Shown piece by piece: positions 3,926 through 5,393 of a stretch of 23,370 bases of DNA. The stretch covers positions 1-23,370 of the forward strand of contig JBPCJY010000167.1 in NCBI GenBank assembly GCA_051004815.1, in the 5' to 3' direction. Source of the stretch: Ktedonobacteraceae bacterium (GTDB lineage Bacteria; Chloroflexota; Ktedonobacteria; Ktedonobacterales; Ktedonobacteraceae). Position 1 is the first letter of the stretch. Each line of letters opens with the position of its first letter. The translations under genes were made by a program, and so were the position numbers. The notes below the pieces were generated by a model. It saw nothing but the letters and a program-made list of their open reading frames with translations. It had not been told where the DNA came from and searched no databases.

Positions 3926-4992
3926 TTATGCCACATATGAGAGCTTCTTGTCTCCTGCCATCATTTGAGCCAGCAGACGAGTGTCATAGACGACCTTTGC
4001 TAATTGTTCGGCTGTAATCGACTGGCGACCATCACACAATGCACTATTGGGGTCGGGATGGACTTCAAGGATAAGCCCTTCTGCCCCGGCGGCAATGGCG
4101 GCACGCGACATCGTGGGAACGAGTTCACGTCGCCCTGTGGCATGGCTTGGGTCAACAATTACTGGTAGATAGGTCAGTTCGTGCAGCAGGGGAACGCAGG
4201 CCAGATCGAGGACATTGCGCGTTTGCGGGTCAAAACTACGAATTCCGCGCTCGCACAAAATGACGTGCGGATTGCCTGCCGCGACGATGTATTCCGCGGC
4301 CAGCAACCATTCGTCAATCGTGGCGGCCAGTCCGCGTTTGAGCATCACGGGGCGACGAGCAGCGTCTCGACCAGCAGCCAGCAGTAGCGGGAAATTCTGC
4401 ATGTTGCGACTGCCAATTTGCAAGATATCCGCGTATTGCGCCACTGTTCCCACCAACTCCGGTTCCATCACCTCGGTAATGACTGGTAGTCCGGTCAACT
4501 CGCGTGCCTCAGCCAGCAAGCGCAGCCCTTCAATCCCTAATCCCTGAAACTGGTAGGGCGACGTACGCGGCTTGTAGGCCCCGCCACGCAATACTTGAGC
4601 ACCTGCCGCTTTCACGGCTTGCGCAGTCTCCAGTAATTGCTCCCTATTTTCGACGGCACAAGGGCCAGCCATAATGAGCGGGGCCGCATGACTAATCGTC
4701 ACGGCGGTGCCACCAAGCGCGTCCCCCACCACCATACGGCTGTCAGCGGACAGAAAGGCGCGGCTGACTAACTTATAGGGCGTCTTTATTGGCGTGAGCC
4801 GCTCGACCGCTCGTTGTTGTGTAAGCAATAAGCGGGCTTGCTCATCACATTGGTTGCCATCCAGTGCAATCACCTCGTGACCATCAATATGGGTCGGCGT
4901 GATCGGGCGTTGGCTGCCAGTGATGCGACAAAGCAATGTCATAAGTTGGCCGCGTTCCTCGCTGCTGGCCTGGGTACGAATGCTGATAATCA
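3926..4992 (-). CDS. 3-deoxy-7-phosphoheptulonate (DAHP) synthase, type I-beta (KDOPS-like) with an N-terminal ferredoxin-like regulatory domain
   Basis: [15 protein letters not shown]...[19 protein letters not shown]...VITEVMEP...[11 protein letters not shown]...LKRG...DPSH is characteristic of I-beta DAHPS. ATG at 4992 (MIISIRTQ) has a GAGAGGA RBS 8 nt upstream. The ORF-track start at 5083 would read through the leader terminator. Confidence 0.9.
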
Positions 4993-5015
4993 TCAAAAAA
5001 GTCCTCTCTACTTTG

Positions 5016-5050
5016 GAACAAACAAAGAACAAACAAAGAACAAACAAAAA
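5016..5050. repeat. 11-bp tandem repeat AACAAACAAAG (two perfect copies plus one degenerate) in the DAHPS 5' UTR. On the mRNA it forms a U/pyrimidine-rich tract CUUUGUUUGUU x3 between the terminator and the RBS.
   Basis: Direct reading: 5016-5026 and 5027-5037 are identical; 5038-5050 is AACCAAACAAAAA. Confidence 0.8.
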
Positions 5051-5072
5051 AGCAGAGGTATAAACCTCTGCT
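5051..5072 (-). terminator. Intrinsic terminator-like hairpin (9-bp stem, 4-nt loop) followed on the minus strand by UUUUUUGUUUGUUCUUUG. It lies inside the DAHPS leader, about 60 nt upstream of the start codon, making it a candidate attenuator terminator.
   Basis: AGCAGAGGT-ATAA-ACCTCTGCT is a perfect inverted repeat at 5051-5072. The U-tract is only on the minus-strand side. No upstream minus-strand gene exists that it could terminate. Confidence 0.6.
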
Positions 5073-5075
5073 TTA

Positions 5076-5133
5076 TCCAGCATGATTGGTGATCATTTTT
5101 TGCTCAGCCTAAAAGGCCCACCATCATGCTGGA
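5076..5133 (-). promoter_or_regulatory. Leader RNA hairpin (15 bp with one bulge, enclosing 26 nt) directly abutting the terminator. Its 5' arm contains the stop codon of the leader peptide, so it is a candidate alternative (antiterminator or pause) structure of an attenuator.
   Basis: Plus-strand 5076-5091 TCCAGCATGATTGGTG pairs with 5119-5133 CACCATCATGCTGGA (RC = TCCAGCATGATGGTG). A possible 4-bp extension (5072-5075 with 5138-5141) would invade the terminator's 5' arm. Confidence 0.45.
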
Positions 5134-5192
5134 GGGCTAAACCAATACCAAAAACTGTATTGTTGGGTAATCGTTCTTTGTGAACTGAGCAT
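5124..5192 (-). CDS. Candidate 22-aa leader peptide MLSSQRTITQQYSFWYWFSPPA, with Tyr/Phe/Trp codons clustered as Y-S-F-W-Y-W-F, upstream of DAHP synthase
   Basis: Codon-by-codon reverse-complement of 5192..5124: ATG CTC AGT TCA CAA AGA ACG ATT ACC CAA CAA TAC AGT TTT TGG TAT TGG TTT AGC CCT CCA GCA TGA. Six of seven consecutive codons are aromatic. The stop lies in the hairpin arm and 132 nt before the DAHPS ATG. Only a weak GGA lies upstream of the ATG, which is typical of some leader peptides but lowers confidence. Confidence 0.5.
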   Translation of the reverse strand: MLSSQRTITQQYSFWYWFSPPA

Positions 5193-5291
5193 TTGATTAT
5201 TCCGTCTTATGGACCGACTGCTACGTCGGCGTATTACCTATTTTGATTATAGCGGGCGAATATGGTTGTGTCAAGGGGAAAACCGTAAAAT

Positions 5292-5393
5292 CAGATATTT
5301 GGAGAGAAGGGCTGTCATTCTTCGCGGCGCTCAGAATGACAGCCAGGACCCCTCTCCAGTCCGCTCACGGGAAGCCTTCTCTCCAAATATCTG
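5292..5393. repeat. Nested palindromic repeat (REP/MITE-like element) in the divergent ROK/DAHPS-leader intergenic region
   Basis: Outer 19-bp perfect inverted repeat CAGATATTTGGAGAGAAGG (5292-5310) / CCTTCTCTCCAAATATCTG (5375-5393). Inner inverted repeat GCTGTCATTCT (5311-5321) / AGAATGACAGC (5333-5343). It shares the core CGCTCAGAATGACAG with the element at 12619-12744. Confidence 0.85.

Follow-up and report, generated by a model that had tools for sequence, protein, structure and literature searches.

What controls the gene for 3-deoxy-D-arabino-heptulosonate 7-phosphate (DAHP) synthase in a bacterium of the Chloroflexota, and does the leader in front of it read out the supply of aromatic amino acids? 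The question arises from a locus of Ktedonobacteraceae bacterium (assembly GCA_051004815.1, contig JBPCJY010000167.1, positions 1 to 23,370; this whole stretch of 23,370 nucleotides (nt) is what we call the window), in which the gene for DAHP synthase (DAHPS), the first enzyme of aromatic amino-acid synthesis, is preceded by a short open reading frame (ORF) rich in aromatic codons and by an intrinsic terminator. The original prediction, made from the letters of the window, took these for a candidate ribosome-stalling attenuator. We conclude that the window leader is very probably an aromatic-responsive leader-peptide attenuator; it belongs to a family of more than 90 distinct leaders, in which we found no conserved RNA pairing that competes with the terminator.

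All leader and DAHPS features lie on the minus strand of the window. The regulated gene (3926..4993) starts at the ATG at 4993, has the ribosome-binding site GAGAGGA at 5008-5002, and encodes a type I-beta DAHPS with an N-terminal regulatory extension (TIGR01361, 360 bits; PRK08673, 416 bits; PF00793). Upstream of it every part named in the original prediction is present, together with two that had been overlooked, a promoter and a second mini-ORF. The promoter (5246..5274) consists of TTGACA (5274-5269), a 17-nt spacer, and TATAAT (5251-5246), a perfect sigma-70 match at 12/12 consensus positions. Leader ORF1 (5124..5192) has 22 codons, encodes MLSSQRTITQQYSFWYWFSPPA, ends at a TGA (5126-5124), and is preceded by a GGA (5203-5201) 8 nt before its ATG. 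Its regulatory codon run, TAC AGT TTT TGG TAT TGG TTT (5139..5159; Y S F W Y W F), comprises seven codons of which six are aromatic, as originally described. The second mini-ORF, ORF2 (5104..5127; MMVGLLG), begins at an ATG that overlaps the ORF1 stop (gcATGA) and ends at a TGA 35 nt before the terminator stem. Both ORFs are presumably translated.

The ORF1 stop lies, again as predicted, within the 5′ arm of a 15-bp hairpin (5076..5133; −26.7 kcal/mol, z −5.6 relative to shuffled sequences), here called B:D. Its 5′ arm B is TCCAGCATGAT-GGTG and its 3′ arm D is CACC-a-ATCATGCTGGA, forming 11 + 4 pairs around one bulge beneath a small apical stem; the hairpin spans 58 nt and thus holds the ORF1 stop and the whole of ORF2, whose stop falls in the apical part. 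Just downstream is the terminator (5042..5074; −16.4 kcal/mol, z −6.5), with arms AAAGCAGAGG and CCTCTGCTTT around TTTATA (or a 4-nt loop) and the T-run TTTTTTGTTT. Its stem (5074-5049, followed by TTTTTTGTTTGTT) has 11 pairs if A-U pairs are counted, with the core GCAGAGG/CCTCTGC, and stem plus T-run occur once in the window. The original prediction was right about the terminator and slightly off in placing it 60 nt before the DAHPS start: the stem ends 56 nt, and the T-run ∼49 nt, before the ATG. This predicted terminator lies between the leader ORF and DAHPS, with no room for another promoter. The gene 5′ of the leader, of the ROK family, is divergently oriented, so the terminator belongs to no upstream gene; with that orientation, and with no T-run on the other strand, we ruled out a bidirectional terminator or upstream-gene end.

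Chance is excluded mainly because the whole unit is conserved upstream of DAHPS in relatives, whose DAHPS are just 47–94% identical. A DAHPS protein search restricted to one genome per species gave 80 loci, and the exact motif GCAGAGG-N(3-10)-CCTCTGCTTTT stands just upstream of DAHPS in 32 of these, with a variant T-run in 3 more. With one exception, the motif-bearing genome loci carry a Chloroflexota label (Ktedonobacterales, Limnocylindria, and unclassified groups). Wherever a locus is complete, it contains a short ORF bearing an aromatic run and a hairpin that holds the stop codon, and usually a TTGACA-type −35 element at the equivalent place. A metagenome scan by terminator motif added 120 contigs; in ∼60 of them the leader precedes DAHPS, and the rest are ordinary gene-end terminators of unrelated organisms. 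After duplicate removal, 93 distinct leaders remained, and terminator and hairpin co-occur with an aromatic ORF in more than 90. The comparison of orthologous upstream regions that had been suggested as a check thus finds the aromatic small ORF and the terminator conserved together, in ∼35 of the 80 loci and ∼60 contigs. The terminator stem never varies among the sampled leaders. Part of this invariance reflects ascertainment, because the metagenome loci were found with the terminator motif; the stem is the same in the genome set found by protein similarity. Three contigs (L095, L098, and L164) carry the terminator GCAGAGGAGAAATCCTCTGCTTTTTTG after a gene end together with a GTACC..GGTAC hairpin and have no aromatic leader, so the motif is not exclusive to this family.

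The leaders fall into four subtypes. In type 1, which comprises the Ktedonobacterales and includes the window, ORF1 has 19–29 codons and ends [FY][YW]YWFSPPA-stop. Type 2, from GC-rich Chloroflexota, has an ORF1 of 11–12 codons reading MxxxFYFRxPA-stop. Type 3, a minority, ends ..SPPA-stop or ..CPPA-stop and has the arm CCCTCCGGCYTGA, and in type 4 ORF1 extends into the top of the hairpin, where its stop lies. A short ORF rich in aromatic codons recurs in 26 leaders of the Ktedonobacterales type and in over 60 others, with a GGA 8–11 nt before its ATG. Within the run, which of F, Y, and W occurs where, and by which synonymous codon, differs among leaders, and the aromatic character is kept (FWYWF, FYYWF, WYYYYF, FYF, FFFY, and others), while the N-terminal part of ORF1 varies freely. 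In every type 1 and type 2 leader the run ends at a fixed distance, its last aromatic codon standing 4 codons ahead of the ORF1 stop. The residues 3′ of the run track the sequence of the hairpin arm (SPPA, RxPA, SRGLGV, SGGT, TRPAML), which argues against an arrest peptide. A Pro-Ala-stop nascent-peptide arrest motif was accordingly rejected as a candidate: other subtypes encode unrelated residues (SRGLGV, SGGT, and TRPAML), and conservation follows the RNA helix.

The genes that follow the leader also speak for amino-acid sensing. Besides I-beta DAHPS, leaders of this type precede a I-alpha-like DAHPS (L107) that the I-beta query missed, a type I AroH chorismate mutase (L127), and a prephenate dehydrogenase (L189). 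Both leaders of the Phe/Tyr branch, L127 and L189, lack a Trp codon, and although these are two cases only, the absence fits codon-level sensing; relative to its DAHPS-linked relatives, L127 has a clean 3-nt deletion of TGG.

Hairpin B:D is conserved as a structure. Across 60 aligned type 1 and type 2 leaders, 98% of its cells are paired, as against 34–54% when the partner is slid, and three pairs are altered on both sides, that is, covary. In types 3 and 4 the arms are unrelated in sequence yet complementary (e.g. CGCGGCTTGGGCG/CGCCCAAGCCGCG and CCCTCCGGCT/GGTCGGAGGG). The restart ORF is likewise retained. All 55 type 2 leaders have an in-frame ORF2 stop (TGA 23, TAG 30, TAA 2), which falls at codon 7 in 48; counted by frame, stop triplets come to 55/3/2, and shuffled sequences have an in-frame stop at codons 5–8 with P 0.07. 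In type 1 the ORF2 stop is kept in 23 of 26 leaders. Hungry-codon frameshifting past the terminator was considered and rejected: the +1 frame is open in some leaders only, and in Ktedonobacterales the −1 frame meets a stop immediately (TTTAG).

A further helix involves the ORF1 start. The start-codon region S (TGCTCAGTT; 5183..5191) pairs with positions 5109-5101 of C (AGGCTGAGCA; 5101..5110), a segment that holds the ORF2 stop and, according to folding and alignment, pairs either with S or within the apical stem. Of 26 type 1 leaders, 25 preserve helix S:C, and two of these relatives (L009 and L179) show independent compensatory changes. In folding predictions it closes the nascent-RNA fold before D is made, and it crosses B:D; one possible role is to bar late ribosomes from the leader ORF.

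Having established the unit, we looked for the switch. Hairpin B:D and the terminator have no bases in common. When the leader was folded with a ribosome footprint masked at each aromatic codon or stop, as had been proposed, the predicted probability of the terminator was ∼0.98 in every state. The strongest pairing of any upstream segment with the terminator 5′ arm is about −8 to −10 kcal/mol, and the best partner changes from one subtype to another. A 4-bp extension of the hairpin (CCUC:GAGG), suggested in the original prediction as able to invade the terminator, is absent from the GC-rich subtype. As a control, equilibrium folding detected the known switch of Escherichia coli pheL and missed that of trpL. 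Because masked equilibrium folding fails on trpL, we added a pre-terminator test, which asks whether the terminator 5′ arm is already paired before the 3′ arm exists. This test recovers both controls (trpL from 0.17 to 0.39–0.64, pheL from 0.25 to 0.88), and of 7 unrelated aromatic leaders before I-beta DAHPS genes in other phyla, 5 shift the classical way. Applied to the 93 leaders, it found no stall-induced pairing of the terminator 5′ arm; pairing of the arm in the stalled state, compared to the others, is 0.46 vs 0.52–0.59 in type 1, 0.35 vs 0.48–0.72 in type 2, and 0.44 vs 0.65 in type 4. With no conserved pairing competing with the terminator, the classical 1:2 / 2:3 / 3:4 mechanism is not supported, and our tests, which are predictions of secondary structure, speak against it. 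Of the pheL/trpL-type attenuation originally proposed, the unit of leader peptide and terminator therefore stands and the classical switch is not supported. Similarly, for attenuation sensing Phe, Tyr, and Trp through one peptide, the kind of element is borne out by conservation, codon variation, and gene context, while a switch by overlapping antiterminator is not.

Two further pairing candidates were rejected. The aromatic codons can be written against the terminator 5′ arm (C UUC UAC UU resembles the 3′ arm C CUC UGC UU), yet this pairing is not above that of codon-shuffled runs (mean z −0.2), and the helix would also be covered by the stalled ribosome. Pseudoknots of the apical or terminator loop fail in that the loops vary without covariation and the geometry is unfavourable with a linker of 0–4 nt.

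Conserved spacings, measured in 81 diverse leaders, suggest a different arrangement. Counting from the first nucleotide of the last aromatic codon, pairing in B begins 6–8 nt downstream in 65 of the 81. In terms of ribosome footprints, that spacing is the mRNA entrance of a ribosome with the last aromatic codon in its A site. It follows that B:D could form in every stalled state and would be entered once the ribosome advances. At the other end, only 0–4 unpaired nt separate the base of B:D from the base of the terminator stem (0 in 37/81 leaders), and at least 4 of the 5 basal B:D pairs are G-C in 58/81. In the window the ORF1 stop lies 55 nt before the terminator stem, as compared to 35 nt for the ORF2 stop. 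Across subtypes the distance from the final stop to the terminator is 30–37 nt in types 1 and 2 (via ORF2) and 26–40 nt in type 4 (via ORF1 itself). In E. coli, a nearby stop codon represses an intrinsic terminator, with maximal efficiency beyond 30 bp (Li et al. 2016, PMC4824070). The final-stop spacing matches this 30-bp rule, which suggests that the ribosome is carried as far as possible without protecting the polymerase from the terminator.

Our results point to the state of B:D as what is regulated: a stalled ribosome would let the helix form, and a ribosome at the final stop would hold it open. If a biosynthetic gene is what is regulated, a formed B:D must mean read-through, from which we infer the sign of regulation; and as B:D cannot compete for terminator bases, we propose a steric effect. 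Transcription would start at the consensus promoter, and a ribosome would translate ORF1. With aromatic aminoacyl-tRNAs plentiful, it would pass the aromatic run, enter the 5′ arm of B:D, terminate at the TGA, restart on the overlapping ATG, and halt at the ORF2 stop 35 nt before the terminator. There it would keep B from D and leave the RNA upstream of the terminator single-stranded, so that the terminator could fold and the polymerase would stop before DAHPS. At a hungry aromatic codon, the ribosome would instead stall with its leading edge just short of B, and the GC-clamped B:D would form. Rigid and flush with the 5′ end of the terminator (0–4 nt), B:D may then prevent the base of the terminator hairpin from closing within the polymerase's RNA exit channel; the ribosome, stalled at the foot of B:D, would be held close to the junction, and the polymerase would read through into DAHPS. 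On the whole statement, a ribosome-mediated attenuator that reports charged Phe-, Tyr-, and Trp-tRNA and in which B:D sterically blocks the abutting terminator, our confidence is evenly balanced; in the steric step taken by itself it is lower. The wider proposition, that the Chloroflexota aromatic regulon uses a distinct mode of attenuation in which an abutting helix and a stalled ribosome block the terminator and ATGA mini-ORFs position the ribosome, we put forward only tentatively.

Several points weigh against this proposal. Only 3 nt separate helix 1:2 from the terminator in the Rfam consensus for the terminated form of E. coli pheA, so adjacency alone does not always prevent termination. 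The invariant sequence of the terminator stem is left unexplained by a steric model. Type 3 has no restart ORF, its stop lying 57–62 nt before the terminator, and the ORF2 stop is missing in 3 of the 26 type 1 leaders (L009, L086, and L106). Taken at face value, the folding tests would favour the opposite sign, since stalling is predicted to leave the terminator arm less paired. Both kinds of folding, equilibrium and pre-terminator, approximate co-transcriptional kinetics only crudely, and the E. coli control sequences (pheL and trpL) were entered by hand.

The alternatives that could replace the steric step, namely a weak antiterminator, a trans-acting factor, or a regulation that is reversed or absent, appear to us less likely than an abutting helix. 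The leader might be a classical attenuator whose weak, kinetic antiterminator pairs with the terminator 5′ arm on stalling and was missed by our folding tests, an explanation we think rather improbable. Candidates exist in the D:E hairpin of the window (ACC..UC..UGCU with AGCA..GA..GGU) and in an apical CCUUUG facing CAGAGG: D in the window pairs with the terminator arm when B is masked (P 0.83), and in most Ktedonobacterales leaders 6 nt of the apical loop are complementary to that arm (−8.2 kcal/mol). Equilibrium folding missed the known trpL switch too, and the best, sub-threshold Rfam match of the window leader is Phe_leader (RF01859; 27.6 bits, E 0.007 in a 221-nt search, with a gathering threshold of 55 bits). 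However, these pairings are not common to the subtypes despite the invariant terminator arm; D:E needs B masked, that is, a ribosome at the stop codon and not at the aromatic codons, which gives the wrong sign; pairing of the loop to the arm across a 16-bp helix with a 0–4 nt linker seems geometrically implausible; and a test that detects both trpL and pheL shows no stall-induced pairing in the 93 leaders. As to sign, termination could be the default, with read-through needing ongoing translation, or the terminator could be constitutive and partial, tuned by the small ORFs with no amino-acid switch. The modelled arm is indeed freest on stalling and most sequestered in naked RNA or once the ribosome has moved on (type 2, 0.35 vs 0.71–0.72), but the underlying pairing of codons and arm is the one that does no better than codon-shuffled controls, shutting off the first aromatic enzyme during aromatic starvation is physiologically implausible, and the enrichment of aromatic codons together with the loss of Trp codons in Phe/Tyr-branch leaders indicates amino-acid-specific sensing. 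We regard a reversed or absent switch as quite unlikely.

Control in trans is only a little less unlikely than that. A protein or an uncharged tRNA could read the terminator hairpin or B:D, the leader ORF being a second input or serving timing only. In its favour, GCAGAGG/CCTCTGC and much of B:D are invariant across AT-rich and GC-rich lineages, which is unusual for helices that serve pairing only, and the next gene after DAHPS in the window is for an RNA-binding ANTAR response regulator. Yet the ANTAR gene is linked in Ktedonobacterales only (15/90 loci), and the B:D sequences differ completely between subtypes. ANTAR targets, as Ramesh et al. reportedly described them in 2012, are hairpins in tandem, two in number, whose hexanucleotide loops have A in position 1 and G in position 4, and the second hairpin overlaps a terminator. 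The leader terminator does not have this pattern: its loop varies in sequence and ranges between 5 and 9 nt in length, showing neither a conserved A/G pattern nor two hexaloops. Nor was a T-box or other Rfam family detected in the leader, even at E up to 10, or any array of (G/U)AG triplets; T-box-like sequence was found only in Firmicutes DAHPS loci. We therefore rejected ANTAR, T-box, and TRAP control on the Rfam searches, gene linkage, and terminator loops. Finally, the ∼190-nt terminated leader RNA or its peptides might themselves act in trans, which would be compatible with attenuation and would explain the sequence conservation. There is a precedent in rnTrpL/peTrpL of Sinorhizobium, a trp attenuator RNA and peptide with trans functions, and in Ktedonobacterales synonymous sites are nearly invariant from TGG TTT AGC CCT CCA GCA TGA on through the hairpin; the terminator is invariant. 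Set against this, the peptide is conserved only in its aromatic residues and in what the hairpin imposes, and an aromatic biosynthesis gene always follows the element directly, in cis; of all the explanations considered, this one has the slenderest prospects.

The proposed attenuator can be compared to several known systems. Like the window leader, E. coli pheL-pheA has an aromatic (Phe) leader ORF, a big stop-codon hairpin, and a terminator within a few nt, all ahead of a gene for aromatic biosynthesis. In pheL, though, the Phe codons form part of the 5′ strand of helix 1:2, whereas in the window the codons are upstream of the helix; and a copy of the terminator 3′ arm after the stop of pheL forms an overlapping antiterminator, of which we found none in the window leader. 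The window leader also differs in having all three types of aromatic codon and a second, restart ORF. With E. coli trpL and hisL the family shares the coupling of ribosome position on regulatory codons to a terminator, and the need for a defined stop for termination; there, a mutually exclusive antiterminator shares bases with the terminator, while here the regulated helix and the terminator share none. The pyrBI type (PMC4824070) resembles our model in that a ribosome near the polymerase affects termination, in that case preventing it, without alternative RNA pairing. The pyrBI-type ribosome approaches along the RNA, with the leader ORF running into the terminator or to within ∼20 nt of it, whereas the window stops are 55 and 35 nt away and the ribosome would hypothetically be brought near by looping out the 58-nt hairpin.

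The closest parallel in gene context is Corynebacterium glutamicum aroR, an aromatic leader peptide upstream of a DAHPS gene, aroF, which is not of the I-beta type. Its Phe-Tyr-Phe motif recalls the GC-rich subtype, which likewise centres on F-Y-F; aroR is from a different phylum and is likened to the window leader by its Phe-Tyr-Phe description alone. It controls aroF by ribosome-mediated attenuation (PMC11802643; PMC4046766) and, according to a review, responds to Phe and not to Tyr. The original prediction knew of no description of the window arrangement for I-beta DAHPS genes or for its apparently Chloroflexi-like lineage. We found no published description either: the searchable literature on attenuation or leader peptides in Chloroflexi or Ktedonobacter, and a large survey of premature terminators, do not describe the family, while attenuation of a DAHPS gene as such was already known from aroR-aroF.

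Leaders of other designs precede I-beta DAHPS genes elsewhere. Unrelated aromatic leader ORFs with terminators were seen at loci of Acidobacteriota, Nitrospirota, Rokubacteria, and Desulfobacterota, so the idea is widespread and the present architecture is the novelty. Eight leaders unrelated to the family (L040, L048, L050, L054, L060, L069, L075, and L079) have runs such as ..TYYYYYYVPF.., ..SLFFFFFT.., and ..FFGWYYYF..; a terminator is detectable in seven of these, and none was found in L079. The upstream regions of Firmicutes DAHPS genes (L037, L046, L047, and L053; L038, L045, L055, L071, and L077) carry T-box-like GGGTGGTACCGCGG or TRAP-spaced (G/T)AG arrays.

Around the leader, the window has further features. 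Between the terminator and the ribosome-binding site, the 11-nt tandem repeat noted in the original prediction is confirmed at 5016..5048, with 3.0 copies of the unit (RNA: UUUGUUUGUUC) at 100% identity that prolong the U-rich tract. The closest relative (L001) has one copy, and the three-copy repeat is specific to this genome and probably lies outside the conserved unit; in the fold of the full leader it pairs with ORF1 codons 5–8 (CAAAGAAC). On the far side, 18 nt upstream of the −35 element of the leader promoter, a 102-bp element (5292-5393) is bounded by terminal inverted repeats of 19 bp that match perfectly (CAGATATTTGGAGAGAAGG), with a 17-nt palindrome inside; it is not at the same site in L001 and looks like an insertion of the miniature inverted-repeat transposable element type. 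Downstream, the minus-strand order is DAHPS, the ANTAR response regulator (3855-3196), and a PSP1-domain protein (3145-2117), kept in 14–15 Ktedonobacterales loci and not elsewhere. The PSP1 protein ends in a Gly/Cys-rich repeat, GGCGSCGKTGGGCGS... The whole window, compared to Rfam 15, matched no family at its gathering threshold.

Detailed knowledge of leader-peptide attenuation comes from a few Proteobacteria and Actinobacteria, and the family described here extends it to the Chloroflexota and to type I-beta DAHPS. It defines a small aromatic regulon of DAHPS, chorismate mutase, and prephenate dehydrogenase, with codon content tuned to the branch of the pathway, and it supplies more than 90 natural variants of an attenuator apparently without an overlapping antiterminator. 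If a hidden classical antiterminator operates instead of an abutting helix, the family would still be a useful new RNA family for annotating a poorly studied phylum. If the abutting-helix mechanism is true, it would be a new way for RNA structure and a stalled ribosome to control intrinsic termination; it would bear on how upstream RNA context sets terminator efficiency, and would offer a compact, designable part for synthetic biology.

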